A stretch of 58,745 nucleotides of DNA from a virus (Duplodnaviria > Heunggongvirae > Uroviricota > Caudoviricetes). Below are positions 5,962 to 36,303 of this stretch, in pieces. The notes under the pieces are model-generated. The model was not told the DNA's origin. It did no database searches and saw nothing but the letters and a program-made list of their open reading frames with translations. Position numbers and translations under genes: made by a program. The DNA is taken from the IMG/VR virus record IMGVR_UViG_2531839662_000025, one strand, 5' to 3'. Positions within the stretch are counted from its first letter, which is position 1. The number at the start of each line of letters is the position of its first letter.

Positions 5962-6367
5962 TCAGTTCACTCCAGATATCATCAAAAATAATGTTGTGAA
6001 TATTGCCGTCACGCTGGTAAATGGTAATGGCAAGTGCCAGCGAGTCTGTCCCGGTCCGGACAGCGTTAATATCAAGACGGGAAGCAACACCATCCTCCAC
6101 CATCCACGCCAGCGCCTCACGGGCATAATCTCTGGCAAGCTGCGGGGTTTTATTTGTCAGCTTGCTGCGTCGCAACAGATACAGACGCGACCCCGTGCGA
6201 TCATTCTGAACCGCAGGCCAGGTATCTCCCCACCATCCAAATATCTGCGGTGCATCATCATCACGCCCTGCACGCCGCCAGGTAAAAAGCGAAATAATCA
6301 CAGCACGCGTCAGAAGGTCGAGCGAAGCCCCGGTCGACACGGTTCGCCCGTTAACATTAATCATCAT
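5954..6367 (-). CDS. baseplate protein (Mu gp46 / GPW-like)
   Basis: 137-aa ORF overlapping baseplate J start; Mu-like order. Confidence 0.6.
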   Translation of the reverse strand: MMINVNGRTVSTGASLDLLTRAVIISLFTWRRAGRDDDAPQIFGWWGDTWPAVQNDRTGSRLYLLRRSKLTNKTPQLARDYAREALAWMVEDGVASRLDINAVRTGTDSLALAITIYQRDGNIHNIIFDDIWSELNG

Positions 6368-6372
6368 GATTT

Positions 6373-6906
6373 TCAGCCCATCGGTTGATCTGGCGTGTCA
6401 GTGATCCCACCACCATCACCATTTTCGGTGTGTTTGTGGGCATTGTAGGTCTGCCGCATTTGCTGCATGCTGAGTCCGCCACTGTCGCAATTGTCAGTAA
6501 TATCAGCGGTGGATTCGACAGGCATTTCAAAGCGCGCTTTAGGCGCGTTTTGAAAAATAATGGGCTTCCCGCCCCCGTTCACCACAATACCGGAACGAGT
6601 CAGGACAACGGATTGCCCCTGATCGTCATAAAGCGCCACTTCCCCACGTTTCAGTCCTTTCAACCGGTAACGTCTGTCAGCCACGACCACAACCACACCA
6701 TGAGAACGATCGCCCGCCGGGAATAAAGCAACGCCCTCAGCACCGTTCTGTGCAGCAGATGTAAAACCATAAGGCTCAAGGTGCTCAACGTGTTGTTTCT
6801 GATCTCCGGCTATCATTTTCAACCCTACAGACTGACACTTTCTGGCTGAATCCACCGCCGTGATGACAGCCCGGGAAATCAGATTGCGAAGAGAAAACCC
6901 GTTCAT
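6373..6906 (-). CDS. baseplate assembly protein V / spike (Mu gp45-like)
   Basis: 177-aa ORF in Mu-like baseplate cluster. Confidence 0.6.
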   Translation of the reverse strand: MNGFSLRNLISRAVITAVDSARKCQSVGLKMIAGDQKQHVEHLEPYGFTSAAQNGAEGVALFPAGDRSHGVVVVVADRRYRLKGLKRGEVALYDDQGQSVVLTRSGIVVNGGGKPIIFQNAPKARFEMPVESTADITDNCDSGGLSMQQMRQTYNAHKHTENGDGGGITDTPDQPMG

Positions 6907-7961: not shown

Positions 7962-9349
7962 CTGACGGGTACCCTTAATGCCCTGATCGGAACAAAGCCC
8001 GGATGGGAGATGGCATTTCGATCCAGGATATCAGTTTCACGGGACGCATCGTCGTACCATGACGCAGCCAGAACAAGCGCAGGAAGAACCTCCGCTGGCG
8101 TTCGCTCTGCGGTCTCCTCCGTCTGAACCAGACGGGCCTGAATATCCCGGTTCAGTTCTGTACGTAATGACGTCAGCTGAAAAAACAGCCTGTCATCCGC
8201 CGCACGCCTGAGCTCCTGTTCAATCGCCGCGTTCAGCGATTCGCGTATGATGGTGAGATTTTCCCGCGTGGGTGGTTGCGCGGTCTCATCCTGCTCTGTG
8301 CTGGCTGCCACGCTGTCAAGCGCCGGATGAGAAACATGAATGATATCGGACTGACGTTCAGTGGAACCACCAACAGCCACAACCGCCTGCTGATTTTTCA
8401 CCAGACTTCCGGGTTGCGGCAGTGAAGTGACCGCCCTTGCAGCCTCGCTGATTGCCGTCGTCCGGATGACTGCAGCCACCAGATTTGTCTGCTGTTTTTG
8501 CCTGACAACCGATGCGGAATCTGTGGGCCACACAGCACGCGGTGCCAGTCCTGGATCCAGCGTAATACCTGACATTGTCGTTATGGACTGCACCAGATCC
8601 TGTGTGTTACCCACCAGTCTGGTTCCTGCCCGCCAGGTATCCTGCAACGTATGCACAAAATCACTGGCAACCGACGGCGGCATCAGAATGACGGATAAAT
8701 CGCCCTGCAGTAGTCTCGCTCCGGCAGAAACAGCCGAATTAACCATTTTGAAAGCTGTCTGAACGGTTCCCAGCATATCGGTTGCCCGGGCAATAACATC
8801 GTTCTGAATAAAGTCCGATATTCCCGCGAGATCAAAATCGCCGAACATGTCTTCAATCAGCTCATCCAGGAATCCGGACGACTCCTCCAGTTTTCTGGCG
8901 GTTGCGGCTCCGGCGACCGGGAATGACAGTTCCCCGCTCTCAACAAACTGAAATGAAACCCGGCACATACGGCCTTCCGTGCTGGAATGAGAAACGGTCA
9001 CCTGTCCGTCAATACAACCCTGCATTTCACCGAACTGCGGATGGATCAGTGTCCCCGGCCCGGCGGTTTCAATCGCGGTAATCAGCCTGTCGCGCTGCTC
9101 TGCGTAATCATCACCAACGAGATACGCATTAATCGTCAGCCGTCGCGTGGCACGCCCGAGATCTTCCGTGTACGGTTTGTCACGGTTTGGGTATTCATGG
9201 ACCTGAACGCGGCGTCCGAACGAACCCTCGTCGCTTTCCACCGAAAACGGAACGCCACGAAATGAAGCATCGTAAAGATTATCGCGCCAATTGATACCTG
9301 AAGATGCAGAAAGGAGTGAAGAAAGAGAAGGTAAAGAAGGTAAGTCCAT
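7958..9349 (-). CDS. tail protein, Mu N-like DNA circularization protein (gp43-like)
   Basis: 463-aa ORF following tape measure in Mu-like order. Confidence 0.6.
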   Translation of the reverse strand: MDLPSLPSLSSLLSASSGINWRDNLYDASFRGVPFSVESDEGSFGRRVQVHEYPNRDKPYTEDLGRATRRLTINAYLVGDDYAEQRDRLITAIETAGPGTLIHPQFGEMQGCIDGQVTVSHSSTEGRMCRVSFQFVESGELSFPVAGAATARKLEESSGFLDELIEDMFGDFDLAGISDFIQNDVIARATDMLGTVQTAFKMVNSAVSAGARLLQGDLSVILMPPSVASDFVHTLQDTWRAGTRLVGNTQDLVQSITTMSGITLDPGLAPRAVWPTDSASVVRQKQQTNLVAAVIRTTAISEAARAVTSLPQPGSLVKNQQAVVAVGGSTERQSDIIHVSHPALDSVAASTEQDETAQPPTRENLTIIRESLNAAIEQELRRAADDRLFFQLTSLRTELNRDIQARLVQTEETAERTPAEVLPALVLAASWYDDASRETDILDRNAISHPGFVPIRALRVPVR

Positions 9350-19564: not shown

Positions 19565-20290
19565 TTAAAGCGAGCGAATACCAACGCTGACCAGATGCTC
19601 AGACAGATCCGGCTCCGGTTCACCGCCATTGACCAGCATCCGGCTCATTGCTGTAAACATCGCAACAGGACCGTCGATTTTGGCTTCCGGCGTGGATTTA
19701 TTCGGGAAGATATTGTTGTTTTTGTCCGGTTTCACCGTAACGTTAGACATCATCCAGTTCATGACCGGGTGATTGCTGTGGTGGAAACGTCCGGCATAGA
19801 CCAGTGATTCCGTTTCCTTCATGGCCTCTGACAGATTGCGGACCGTCTGCGGAACTTCCACCAGCGGTATACCTTCTTCAGCCAGCGCCAGACTGAACTG
19901 CATTGCGCTCCACGGGTCAAATCCCAGTTCCCTGAGGTTTTCACCGCCAATCCATTCCAGTAAGTCACTTTTTATCTGAGCATGATCGATAACATCACCA
20001 TCCGTCAGGATGAGCTTATCCATCTCCGCCCACTTCCGGTAAAGTTCTGCCTGCTGCCGCGAGCATCGCTCCAGCCGTCCTTCCGGAAGCCAGAATTTAA
20101 AATCAGCATGAACATGTCCGTTATCGGTTCGCCAGAGTTTTGCCGCCGCACAGATATCAATCTTATGAGCAAGGTCGACGCCGACCCACATGGGATATGT
20201 TTTCAGCTCATGTTGTGGAGCAATGTATTCGCACTTCTCCCACTTAATCATATCCATCCAGGCAGATTCGGCAGTGACCCACACATTCAT
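19565..20290 (-). pseudogene. terminase large subunit, C-terminal (nuclease) fragment of the host prophage
   Basis: 241-aa ORF aligns by eye with the C-terminal third of the intact TerL at 20817-22478; N-terminal two thirds lie 15 kb away at 35283-36303. Confidence 0.8.
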
Positions 20291-25664: not shown

Positions 25665-26810
25665 TTACTTGCCAGCCTGAATTTCCAGAATCTTGATGGC
25701 GTTCGAATCCACCACACCACCGCCCAGATATTTCTGGGTATAGATGTTAATGAATCCAGGTTCGCTGAAATCCAGACGGGTACGCGTACCGGTTTCATGG
25801 TCAACGATGAAATAACCGCGCTTAAAGTCACCTACTGCAATCACACCGTCCGGCATAAATTCCAGATATTCAACCGGAAGCCCCAGCAGAGAATCAGGAT
25901 CACCAGCCTGTAAACGATCGCGCCAGATGTAATCACCAGTGGCATTTTTCAGTTTTTGTGCGGAGGCGGCTGTATTTGAGTTCATCACCCATACAGCTTT
26001 TTTGCGGTACTTATTGCGCAGCGTAAATTTCAGGTCAATCAGCATGTCGGCGCTGAGACTGCCAGTAACTTTTTTCGTCTGGAGCGTACCGAAAGGACGG
26101 GTTTTGTCGTTATCCGCAGTGCGCGGAAAAGCCAGGAAACCTTTAGCTTTTTTCTCGCCATCACCGGAAACCAGATCCGTTTCTTCGGTATCAACGAAAG
26201 TGTCGCCAATTTCAGAAGATAACCAGCCCATAATATCGACTTCGGAAAAATCGATAATTTCCTGAGTGGTTTTCGGGTAAGCGTAGATCGGATACAGGCG
26301 GATACTGACTTCATTCAGTTTTGGTGTTGCCGTCTGGTTACGTGCCGCACCTTCTTCGCCGTGTTCAACGACCGCACCCCCGGCAGAAACCAATTGCTTA
26401 AATTCATTGCTGTGAATGGTTTTAACAGTACAGATTTTACGCATCACCGATTCATCAGAAAGCTGACGCATAATTTCTCTGTTCAGTTCCGGGATAACCG
26501 TATAACCACCATCAGCCGGGACACTGCCGGACAGGTTGCGGGTTTCCCCGGTCAGAATGTAAGAGCGCAGTTCGTCTTTGGTTATTTTCTCTTCGACGGA
26601 AACACCAGGCTGGTTACGTTCTTCATCAGCCACAGATTCGAGGCGGGAAATTTCTGTGTCGAGGGAATCGGCTTTTGCACGCAGTTCATCAAACTGTTTG
26701 CCCTCGTCATCGTTCAGGCTGCGGTTTTCACTGTCGGCTTTTTCCAGCAGGGATCGCATCTGGTTTTTCAGGGCGGTTTTTTGCTGGCGGAGTTCGATTA
26801 ATTTCTTCAT
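25665..26810 (-). CDS. major capsid protein (HK97 fold, satellite-encoded)
   Basis: 381-aa ORF with N-terminal coiled-coil; related in pattern to the host prophage MCP. Confidence 0.85.
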   Translation of the reverse strand: MKKLIELRQQKTALKNQMRSLLEKADSENRSLNDDEGKQFDELRAKADSLDTEISRLESVADEERNQPGVSVEEKITKDELRSYILTGETRNLSGSVPADGGYTVIPELNREIMRQLSDESVMRKICTVKTIHSNEFKQLVSAGGAVVEHGEEGAARNQTATPKLNEVSIRLYPIYAYPKTTQEIIDFSEVDIMGWLSSEIGDTFVDTEETDLVSGDGEKKAKGFLAFPRTADNDKTRPFGTLQTKKVTGSLSADMLIDLKFTLRNKYRKKAVWVMNSNTAASAQKLKNATGDYIWRDRLQAGDPDSLLGLPVEYLEFMPDGVIAVGDFKRGYFIVDHETGTRTRLDFSEPGFINIYTQKYLGGGVVDSNAIKILEIQAGK

Positions 26811-27104
26811 GAAGGTTTTCTCGTATTGGTTAAGATTCAGGACGTGAAACCAACACGGAGGGAGCGCCGCCCGACACTCTCGGCATCTCGCAGATCAACC
26901 CGGCATCGCGCAGGGGGTCAGGCGGCATTGTGGCGGCTCACGTCTGAGTGCCACACGCCAACATATACATAAAAATCAGTATGTAAACATCAGCCAGAAT
27001 CACCGAACAACCTGGAACAACCACGAACAAATAATTTACAAAACCTGAAAAAATAAATAAGCTGTTCCGTACATTTTCTGCTCGTCAATCAGGAGGAACG
27101 AACT

Positions 27105-27578
27105 ATGTCAGAAAATGAACTGAAAAAAGCAATGTTCATTCAGCAACGATTGCAGATTCTCCACCTTGGTAAACACTATGATGAGTTCAGCGATTCTTAC
27201 GTGTATGCCTGGGAGGCAGATGTTTATCCTTTCTTGCAGGATGGCGACGGAAGTATTCCTACTCGCCCACATGAAATTTACGAAGAGTTTTTCGGCACAT
27301 CTAAAAACAAAGCTAAAAAGATATACGATCGTCTGTGCAAAGCCTGGCACGACCGGGAGGCGCTCACATTCTATAAACTAGAAAGTGAATATGGTGTAAC
27401 AAGTAGCAGCATGCACGGATGGACACGAAGTGATTTACTTCACATTTGCCGCTATCTGTATCTTGAGGGGTGTTTCGATAAAGATTTCTGGGAAACATTA
27501 CTGGAAAACGGAAAATGCCCAAGCGAAGCACTTTACCTTAGCGATGAATTTAATCGCGATACAGAGATCGACTTCTAA
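27105..27578 (+). CDS. hypothetical protein (accessory cargo gene of the satellite)
   Basis: 157-aa ORF on the opposite strand to all flanking satellite genes, lower GC, own terminator; no family recognised. Confidence 0.6.
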   Translation: MSENELKKAMFIQQRLQILHLGKHYDEFSDSYVYAWEADVYPFLQDGDGSIPTRPHEIYEEFFGTSKNKAKKIYDRLCKAWHDREALTFYKLESEYGVTSSSMHGWTRSDLLHICRYLYLEGCFDKDFWETLLENGKCPSEALYLSDEFNRDTEIDF

Positions 27579-27580
27579 AA

Positions 27581-27614
27581 ATAATGGCCTGGAAAATACC
27601 AGGCCATTATTATT
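27581..27614. terminator. bidirectional rho-independent terminator
   Basis: 10-bp stem AATGGCCTGG/CCAGGCCATT with T/A runs on both sides, between convergent genes. Confidence 0.6.
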
Positions 27615-27902
27615 CTACCGTTTCACGGGATCACGCATTCTGCGCCTTATTTTCCACAGATATTCGATCATCGCTTCCACCTGCTCACGGTTGGTTGCGA
27701 AAATTTCCCCGGTCAGTGAGCTACGCAGAAAATCATGATGATCCACAAAAAATAACGCATCGGAAGAAAGCAGCCGGCGATATTTTTTTACTGTCGTGGT
27801 TTCCAGATCATCAAAACCATGAAACTTTTTATGTTGCTGAACTTCTTCAAATGTCACAGGCATGTTTCCTCCTGCTACCACGATACCAGAAACAGTTAAC
27901 AA
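27615..27902 (-). CDS. hypothetical protein
   Basis: Track ORF; likely start MPVTFEEV at 27863. Confidence 0.4.
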   Translation of the reverse strand: MLTVSGIVVAGGNMPVTFEEVQQHKKFHGFDDLETTTVKKYRRLLSSDALFFVDHHDFLRSSLTGEIFATNREQVEAMIEYLWKIRRRMRDPVKR

Positions 27903-35104: not shown

Positions 35105-35124
35105 GTGATTTATAACCCGTTTTT

Positions 35125-35145
35125 GCAATACACAGTGCAATACAC
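35125..35145. repeat. arm-type repeat GCAATACACAGTGCAATACAC
   Basis: Direct repeat of the motif at 20377-20397. Confidence 0.5.
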
Positions 35146-35275
35146 AAATGATGAAAACAGCCAGAACCTTCCAGAAAAAACAAAAACGACGAACAAGAAA
35201 AAATCTTTTTCTTTCATTTGGTTACTAAAAAAATCAGGACAGGTCGCACTGTTGTTACGGCGTGATGTTACTTTC

Positions 35276-35290
35276 TTGGTAAAAAAATTC
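35276..35290. repeat. putative att core (right junction of satellite)
   Basis: TTGGTAAAAAAATTC at the point where the host terL reading frame is lost. Confidence 0.5.
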
Positions 35291-36303
35291 ACCCGCGCAG
35301 AGACCTGCTCCTTCGCTTTTTTCGCCAGACGACGCAGATCATCCCAGCGTTTACAGATGCCCAGGCCAGGATTCGCTTTCTGCCAGACCGTTTCATCAAA
35401 CGGATCATCTCCCTCATCGAGCGTGTAAATGATCGCAAAGTAGGAGTCGTCTTTTACCGCGCCCTCCACGTCGCTGTTATAGCCTCGCAATACCTTAATG
35501 GCGTAATCGCGCTGCTCGTAGCAAATCCCTTCCTTGTTAAAGCCAGCCGTGGTGATGCCAAATAACAGAGACTGCAGACGGGCACCGGTTGCCGTTTCCA
35601 GAACGTCCCACACGTCACGGGTTTTATGAGCATGCAGCTCATCAATAATGGCGCAGTGGATGTTCAGACCGTCCAGGTTGTTTGCATCCGAGGAAAGCGG
35701 TTCAAATTTTGATGCGCTCTGCTCCTGGTAAATCGCCAGCTTGTTGAAATCAAACAACCGCCCGAGTGTCGACCGGGCTTTTCTGACCATATTTTTGGCG
35801 TCTTCAAACACAATTCTGGCCTGGTCACGCGTGGTTGCGGCTGAATACACCTCAGCACCGCCTTCACCATCTGCCCCCGTCATATACAGGCCGATACCCG
35901 ATGACAGGGTTGATTTTGCGTTTTTACGGGCGACTTCGTTGTACGCCGTCCGGAACCGGCGCACCATCACCGGACGTCCGCTGCCATCGCTGCGTATGAC
36001 AACTTCCCCGGTCTCTTCATTGACCAGCGGAATGACAAAACCAAAAATATTAATGAGGATAAATACATGCCAGTCCATCAGTTCAATGGGCTGGCCTGCC
36101 AGCGCCCCTTTTACATGGGGCACAAATTTGTAGAAATTCAGGATGTGCTGCGCACGGGGTTCACTGAAATAAATCCCCCGCTCTTCGCCGTACTTCAGAT
36201 CATCAAGAAAACGCTGGCAGGCCAGACGGACAAATTCGCCAGCGACAATTTCTCCTGCAACAACACGTTCGGCGTAGCGGATCCCGTCAGCCACTTTTGC
36301 CAT
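35283..36303 (-). pseudogene. terminase large subunit, N-terminal (ATPase) fragment of the host prophage
   Basis: Track ORF 35110-36303: first ~345 aa are TerL-like, then the frame runs into satellite sequence and becomes low-complexity. Confidence 0.8.

Follow-up and report, generated by a model that had tools for sequence, protein, structure and literature searches.

An acidic, all-helical protein of an undescribed family, encoded by a cargo cassette in the accessory hotspot of a capsid-forming phage-inducible chromosomal island, as a tentative candidate for phage interference

The tail assembly inhibition (Tai) proteins, which prevent the assembly of phage tails and protect against lambdoid phages, are single-gene immune proteins (He et al. 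2024, PMC11364771). They are encoded by phage-inducible chromosomal islands (PICIs) as well as by prophages and P4-like satellites. The same study describes the mid-island PICI region next to pri as an accessory/immune region and reports experiments in which Tai genes taken from it confer resistance to phages. A further type of island, the capsid-forming PICI (cf-PICI), has the gene set described for EcCIEDL933, the prototype, for which induction, packaging and transfer have been reported. Here we analyze a viral sequence of 58,745 nt from IMG/VR (IMGVR_UViG_2531839662_000025, Caudoviricetes; referred to below as the window), which contains a satellite of this type, and in particular a gene of the satellite located on the plus strand at 27105-27578. 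It encodes a 157-residue acidic, all-helical protein of an undescribed family, whose domain we named X. The gene is carried on a cassette, as cargo of a satellite hotspot that has been documented before. As a tentative functional assignment, to which we give somewhat less than an even chance, we propose that X acts against phages, or interferes with them, by binding a protein and not as an enzyme. The product is listed by RefSeq in identical elements as WP_001293446.1, a "hypothetical protein"; we found no paper that names this accession, and a search of the literature on cf-PICIs and satellites for accessory or hotspot content returned no gene described at this slot. A cargo gene in a PICI hotspot is of an already known kind, whereas the family and the fold of X are undescribed. 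Satellite and prophage hotspots are a productive source of new immune and counter-immune genes.

The existence of full-length homologues at 52-63% identity, together with ratios of nonsynonymous to synonymous substitution rates (dN/dS) of 0.03-0.24 between close allele pairs, indicates that the open reading frame (ORF) at 27105-27578 codes for a protein; it is a real gene under purifying selection. There are 19 such homologues (from Enterobacter, Serratia, Raoultella, Rouxiella, Edwardsiella and others), with 35 invariant positions. When 1.84 billion representative proteins were searched with a profile, 348 family clusters were retrieved at E <= 0.001; a search of a 5.8-billion-protein set added little. 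The X protein has an isoelectric point of 4.9 (the family median is also 4.9), a net charge of -11 and 16% aromatic residues. Searches of Pfam, PHROGs, NCBIfam and PADLOC-DB v2 with this protein and 76 diverse members returned no family match, and no match to the protein was found among PDB sequence profiles. AlphaFold produced a confident model (predicted local distance difference test score, pLDDT: 90), for which Foldseek reported no match in PDB or BFVD (best E > 2); the model contains a weak winged-helix-like sub-fold. The initial annotation had recognized no family for the protein, and sequence and structure comparisons alike agree with it; confident homology to a housekeeping or structural protein, which it had named as one of the results that would speak against its view, was likewise not found by the profile and structure searches. 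In the broad family, the near-invariant positions are mostly aromatic or hydrophobic, with the addition of one Glu and one Arg, a pattern more suggestive of a scaffold or binding protein than of an enzyme. No catalytic signature or functional motif was found in the protein, and inspection by eye revealed no obvious secretion signal or membrane segment. A HEPN-like Rx4H motif (R108...H113) was considered and rejected by eye, as position 113 is H, N, D or K in close homologues. The ORF (42.2% GC) had been singled out by its lower GC content than that of its neighbors, which is true with respect to the capsid gene (48.3%), PerC (51.8%), SSB (59.9%), the primase (54.0%) and the satellite as a whole (49.8%), but not with respect to the neighboring phrog_1957 gene (43.8%) or the integrase (42.1%); since these two are equally low, GC content alone is no distinguishing mark of the ORF.

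The element that carries the cargo gene is a cf-PICI. A near-identical element in Escherichia coli ETEC1749 (RefSeq) comprises an integrase, regulators, a replication block, the ORF and all genes of a head and packaging module; between the integrase and TerL, RefSeq annotates neither tail nor lysis genes, i.e. the full cf-PICI set of integrase, replication module, capsid, protease, portal, connector, HNH, TerS and TerL is present without tail and lysis functions. In the window satellite, Pfam identified the major capsid protein, the S78 prohead protease and the portal, all encoded on the minus strand to the left of the ORF, as well as PerC, SSB, the DUF927 primase and a DUF4222 protein, which are encoded together with phrog_1957 on the minus strand to its right. 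These assignments uphold the initial annotation in calling the element a satellite and in placing the ORF between the capsid module and the PerC/SSB/primase module. They also agree with its view of the ORF as the only substantial plus-strand gene of the satellite: the remaining annotated plus-strand genes encode 59 and 65 residues (RefSeq), and the longer plus-strand ORFs overlap minus-strand genes.

The borders of the cassette were determined by alignment with an ORF-less E. coli cf-PICI (from NZ_CP027447), which matches the window up to ...CCTGAAAAAA and again from CCTGGA.... The cassette (534 bp, 27054-27587, plus strand) is a clean presence/absence indel that comprises a -10 box, the 5' untranslated region (UTR), the ORF and the left extension of a hairpin stem, and the insertion point lies between the conserved ...TTTACAAAACCTGAAAAAA and the hairpin. 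Some part of a query extending from the 5' end of the capsid gene to phrog_1957 is matched by 484 of 5,426 complete E. coli genomes, nine of which carry the ORF. Most of the 484, O157:H7 strains included, match over a backbone element of about 50 bp alone (27005/27010-27053, see below). The slot is empty in the O157 element that was examined, as it is in most related E. coli cf-PICIs. A survey of 74 IMG/VR cf-PICI loci, seeded on the capsid protein, found the X gene in the slot of three, while the others are empty or contain other cargo. In the cf-PICIs from E. coli and IMG/VR taken together, the slot is empty, occupied by X, or occupied by one of at least eight unrelated cargo types (a 168-residue family, a 159-residue protein, a pair of genes encoding 228 and 140 residues, a DUF2971 protein, HEPN_LA2681, a YopJ acetyltransferase and several singletons), all with one common insertion point and all oriented away from the capsid gene. 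The DUF2971 protein matches the PADLOC candidate system PDC-S31 (E = 7e-99). The location between pri and the packaging module and the variation of content among related islands are those of a mid-island accessory hotspot, and the idea of hotspot cargo is supported both by this variation and by the resistance conferred by Tai genes from the accessory region (He et al. 2024, PMC11364771). The statement of the initial annotation that this location carries variable cargo therefore stands, and the comparison of related satellites that it had proposed yielded the clean 534-bp indel and the alternative cargo types.

The X alleles have been shuffled without regard to the satellite backbone. Next to capsids with 93-98% identity are X proteins that are only 54-63% identical, and conversely X alleles 98-99% identical are found beside capsids 65-74% identical; co-inheritance with the backbone is rejected by the weak correlation between X and capsid identity (Spearman 0.23) and by many discordant pairs. 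An allele 94% identical to a cf-PICI one is present in a PICI-like island of Raoultella, of which the 8 kb examined contain no capsid module.

As to the alternative cargo, the 581-residue HEPN_LA2681 protein, the YopJ acetyltransferase, the DUF2971 protein and the 228+140-residue pair are found in the slot upstream of the capsid gene in the IMG/VR cf-PICI loci L134, L135, L088 and L095. The YopJ-family gene is followed by a transposase-like ORF, and the second member of the recurrent 228+140-residue pair, of unknown function, has an N-terminal hydrophobic segment. PDC-S31 and HEPN_LA2681 resemble X in insertion point, orientation and cassette-like presence/absence, but differ from it in that they are unrelated in sequence and fold and possess recognizable domains, while X has none. 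The 168-181-residue family (WP_001053661.1; L066:1993-2499 in E. coli NZ_CP137705, with homologues in L075, L103, L107 and L122) is characterized by a hydrophobic Gly/Ala-rich C-terminal tail (...STVASIVGAGASALIGLL) and has no match in Pfam or PADLOC; it is a second uncharacterized candidate in the same slot. Its homology to the X protein was considered and rejected.

The putative promoter of the cargo gene spans the left border of the cassette. The backbone element upstream of the capsid operon (27005-27053) consists of three copies of GAACAAC, spaced about 10 bp apart, with AAATAATTTACAAAA after them. The element is retained also by genomes that differ in the capsid gene and in the remaining sequence upstream of it; an alignment of four slot states shows no variation in it, and its core, ACAAATAATTTACAAAA, is kept in other genera too. 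This element may be a binding site for an activator of the packaging operon. The putative -35 box of the cargo promoter (TTTACA, 27035-27040, plus strand) lies inside the backbone element and the putative -10 box (TAAGCT, 27058-27063, plus strand) 17 nt further on, inside the cassette; a Shine-Dalgarno sequence (AGGAGG, 27091-27096, plus strand) can be read 8 nt before the ATG. Of 25 distinct homologous cassettes, taken from diverged cf-PICIs, 21 have the arrangement TTTACA-N17-TAnnnT 56-70 nt before the ATG. Spacers and -10 hexamers have diverged among the 25 (the other cassettes have TATGGT, TATGTT, TATTAT, TATTGT or TAGCCT at the same spacing) while the layout has been kept; from base composition, TAnnnT would be expected at a fixed site with a probability of about 0.03. 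A generic promoter scan missed the site in the window because it scores 8/12, the threshold of this simple scan being 9/12. Judging from these sequence features, the cargo gene is probably transcribed from its own putative sigma-70-type promoter, with the -35 box provided by the backbone, and the housekeeping-type layout suggests expression while the satellite is integrated. A potential hairpin of the 5' UTR over the ribosome-binding site (27065-27124) was not significant (z = -1.3). The initial annotation had credited the gene with its own upstream AT-rich region; the region is indeed AT-rich (38% GC, 26950-27104), but it is mostly conserved backbone upstream of the capsid operon, which is present also in elements without the ORF.

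The divergent arrangement of X and the capsid operon, which share the conserved GAACAAC/TTTACA control element, would also be expected of a protein that regulates the satellite's own cycle or acts in it as a co-factor, e.g. one that modulates the capsid-operon promoter or senses the helper phage. The occurrence of X in the same slot in about 30 cf-PICIs of several genera, the winged-helix-like sub-fold and the DNA-binding domains of some relatives (see below) point in the same direction. We nonetheless consider such a role very unlikely, because most related cf-PICIs, including the O157:H7 elements with an empty slot, do without X and because EcCIEDL933, which may differ from the O157 element examined, is reportedly induced, packaged and transferred. 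Moreover, unrelated genes replace X in the same slot, and X is found also in prophages, plasmids, defense islands and plain chromosomal loci.

Analysis of the genomic neighborhood of homologues revealed that the roughly 30 recovered loci that are cf-PICIs, from several genera, have X in exactly the same slot, divergent from the capsid gene. Elsewhere, some relatives lie beside genes of defense type. In Citrobacter youngae ATCC 29220 (L019:8914-11716), a homologue is convergent with a short prokaryotic Argonaute (PDB match, E = 2e-87) and its Mrr/DREN-APAZ partner; the cf-PICI-type motif ACGAACAAATAATTTACAAA is retained upstream of this homologue, which suggests that the cassette has moved with a piece of the satellite backbone. 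Another homologue lies beside a TIR-domain gene at the integrase end of a prophage, one in Alloalcanivorax is followed by SymE/AbrB-like and SRA-HNH genes (type IV restriction), one in a Raoultella satellite has a PDC-S31 gene directly upstream, and genes for Abi_2 and DUF4760 are found near some relatives. Further contexts include Mu-like prophages, an Enterobacter island with CbtA/CbeA and a few plasmids, and no recurrent partner gene was detected across 16 contexts outside cf-PICIs. The family is nearly absent from 72,556 plasmids, and searches with three divergent members found no homologue in 50,697 GenBank phage genomes. This lack of matches in phages suggests that X belongs to the side of the host and satellite rather than to that of the phage. 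On one of the plasmids (L153, the 35-kb NZ_CP133550 from Pleionea sp., which also carries ParA and a RelE/ParE toxin-antitoxin system), tblastn matched two places; the copy of X at 6001-6456 of the locus was confirmed, and a hypothetical coding sequence annotated nearby at 8170-8637 may be the second.

The bias towards satellites and the host together with the absence from phages, the identity of the slot, the defense-type genes among the alternative cargo and neighbors, and the precedent of Tai lead us to favor a role in phage interference. We envisage the following. From its place in the cassette, which separates the terminator of the replication/regulation operon from the capsid-operon control region, X would be expressed in the resident (integrated) state under its putative promoter. 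Being small, acidic, all-helical and devoid of a catalytic signature, it would bind another protein stoichiometrically; the likely target would be a component of an infecting or helper phage, so that binding would result in protection or interference to the benefit of the host and the satellite, as in the case of Tai. X and Tai (PMC11364771) indeed have several features in common: both are single small cytoplasmic proteins encoded as PICI accessory cargo between the replication and packaging modules, both occur in hotspots of other mobile elements as well, their families are internally very divergent, and both are missed by PADLOC (Tai, when it was found, also by DefenseFinder). No homology between them was detected, as hhalign assigned a probability of 0.1% to a match of the X family profile with phi80 TaiEcA (Orf63, 204 residues) and the same value to one with its counter-defense partner AtiEcA. 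If X protects against phages, it would represent a new defense family and extend the mid-island immune region of PICIs to the capsid-forming ones. The cassette is a small single-gene candidate that is easy to test, with an undescribed family and a confident model without a fold match, and the near-identical satellites in which the slot is empty or contains other cargo provide natural isogenic controls.

Several observations weigh against a defensive role. Guilt by association cannot separate defense from counter-defense. The search with PADLOC across the 76 family members returned matches at chance level alone, and no positive selection was seen on X, the dN/dS values giving no sign of an arms race. 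The putative -10 box in the window is weak, some relatives are located at plain chromosomal sites among housekeeping genes, and the fusions of X to antitoxin-type domains (see below) fit a neutralizer or regulator at least as readily as an effector that binds a phage protein. Finally, not all cargo of the slot is immune-related, because a YopJ effector is found there. Hence, of the earlier suggestion of a candidate uncharacterized accessory or defense gene, the accessory part is substantiated by a real gene without a known family that is cargo of a hotspot, while the defense part remains an inference.

The presence of the YopJ-family effector in the slot, the relatives among housekeeping genes and the lack of a recognizable functional motif would suit cargo that serves host fitness or lysogenic conversion and has nothing to do with phages (stress, physiology or virulence) or, at the extreme, a selfish passenger. 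We regard this as improbable. A passenger without any use would not be expected to show purifying selection and wide conservation, there is no obvious secretion signal or membrane segment, and the strong bias towards satellites and defense neighborhoods points to phage-related biology.

Fusions to other domains were found among the relatives of X. Of the top 150 family hits, about one in six are longer (~195-205 residues) and possess an N-terminal extension of ~45-55 residues, identified as a ribbon-helix-helix (RHH, CopG), Phd/YefM or MazE/AbrB domain; a few other hits have a winged helix or a different extension at the N-terminus, and one family member matches Pfam Aca2_YdiL. RHH, Phd/YefM and MazE/AbrB are the folds through which type II antitoxins classically bind DNA. 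Six fused relatives were examined in their context, and five of them are standalone, with no adjacent toxin gene. In the sixth, a MazE-X gene is followed, 17 bp on, by a gene for a 283-residue protein with a PemK/MazF-like match (E = 0.005, below the Pfam cut-off). Accordingly, X may be compared with modular type II antitoxins: its relatives join the same C-terminal domain to three antitoxin-type DNA-binding domains, and it is acidic. It differs from them in that the protein in the window consists of the X domain alone, without a DNA-binding domain, and in that neither this gene nor most fused relatives have an adjacent toxin. The promiscuous antitoxin domain Panacea/DUF4065 is a comparable case; no antitoxin domain in Pfam, DUF4065 included, matches the X protein.

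These fusions raise the possibility that X is an antitoxin-like neutralizer or a counter-defense factor, i.e. a module that binds and neutralizes a partner. Fused to RHH, Phd/YefM or MazE/AbrB, it would form a self-regulating protein of the antitoxin type, while the solo X of the satellite would switch off a toxin or defense effector encoded elsewhere and thereby aid the establishment and replication of the satellite or its helper. Apart from the three unrelated DNA-binding domains in about one in six of the top hits, such a function would agree with the weak PemK/MazF-like neighbor of the MazE-X gene, the SymE/AbrB-like gene that follows X in Alloalcanivorax, the acidic character that X has in common with antitoxins and many defense inhibitors, and its occurrence in hotspots and defense islands, where counter-defense genes gather too. 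However, the gene in the window encodes no DNA-binding domain and has no toxin gene beside it, both neighbors being backbone genes on the opposite strand; five of the six fused relatives stand alone and no recurrent partner was found in the 16 contexts; and the family is absent from the phage genomes and nearly so from the plasmids, in which counter-defense would be most expected. We therefore rate this explanation, although it is the most serious competitor of phage interference, as rather unlikely. If X does neutralize a toxin or a defense system, the standalone fusions would point to unrecognized one-gene antitoxin-like regulators. Anti-CRISPR (Acr) proteins fused to Aca-type repressor domains are self-regulating anti-defense proteins, and X is similar to them in being small, acidic and inhibitor-like, with relatives that possess an N-terminal repressor-type DNA-binding domain; the difference is the absence of its family from the phage genomes. 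The X protein has no match in Pfam, which would cover the anti-defense proteins ArdA, Ocr and KlcA.

We speculate, with considerable reservation, that the X domain may be a partner-binding module that is new and widespread and has a fold not seen before, used according to a logic like that of the promiscuous antitoxin domains: either as a standalone immune or counter-immune factor of satellites or as the half that senses or neutralizes in single-gene, self-regulated, toxin-less proteins fused to RHH, Phd or AbrB. Were this so, X would be a new class of one-protein, antitoxin-like system.

On its right side, the cassette abuts a bidirectional intrinsic-terminator hairpin (27580-27611, either strand; inverted repeat I1) with 13-bp stems (27580-27592 and 27599-27611) and a 6-nt loop. 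Its folding energy is -21.1 kcal/mol on both strands (z-scores: -7.0 for the plus strand, -5.8 for the minus strand), and it was missed by a simple terminator scan. The ORF-less element has an 11-bp version of the hairpin followed by a T-run on the minus strand, and the hairpin is therefore a backbone feature common to the cassette and to the operon that converges on it. The strong bidirectional terminator that the initial annotation had attributed to the gene is thus confirmed as such, but belongs to the satellite backbone. Beyond it lies the small backbone gene phrog_1957 (27615-27902, minus strand; PHROG match, E = 1e-36; in the RefSeq version 82 residues, 27615-27863), of unknown function, which converges on the cargo gene and is present with or without the cassette. 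In one IMG/VR contig (L023:524-1876), the pair of phrog_1957 and PerC is tandemly duplicated directly beside the cargo gene.

On the left side, the major capsid gene (25665-26810, minus strand; Pfam Phage_capsid, E = 1e-60) is divergent from the cargo gene and is the first gene of the packaging operon. A minus-strand promoter-like site for this operon (TTTACA-16-TATGTT, 26987-26960) has the 50-bp backbone element just upstream. The segment between the start codon of the capsid gene and this putative promoter (26860-26930) is GC-rich and contains a 15-nt inverted repeat (26866-26880 and 26912-26926) as well as a tandem direct repeat CGGCATC(T/G)CGCAG, with the copies 20 nt apart (at 26881 and 26901); its role in the packaging operon could be that of a structured leader RNA or of a site bound by a protein.

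The satellite spans ~20.3-35.1 kb of the window and lies inside the large-terminase gene of the surrounding HK97-like prophage. The flanking TerL fragments, at 19565-20290 and 35110-36303 (both on the minus strand), correspond approximately to residues 312-541 and 7-311, i.e. the terL gene of the prophage is split at the junction of the ATPase and nuclease domains, and both halves are annotated as partial terminase genes in ETEC1749 (RefSeq). The integration of satellites into prophages has been mentioned in the literature. This appears to be a recurrent integration site, since TerL fragments also flank the homologous satellites in five other loci (L025, L026, L031, L033 and L040).

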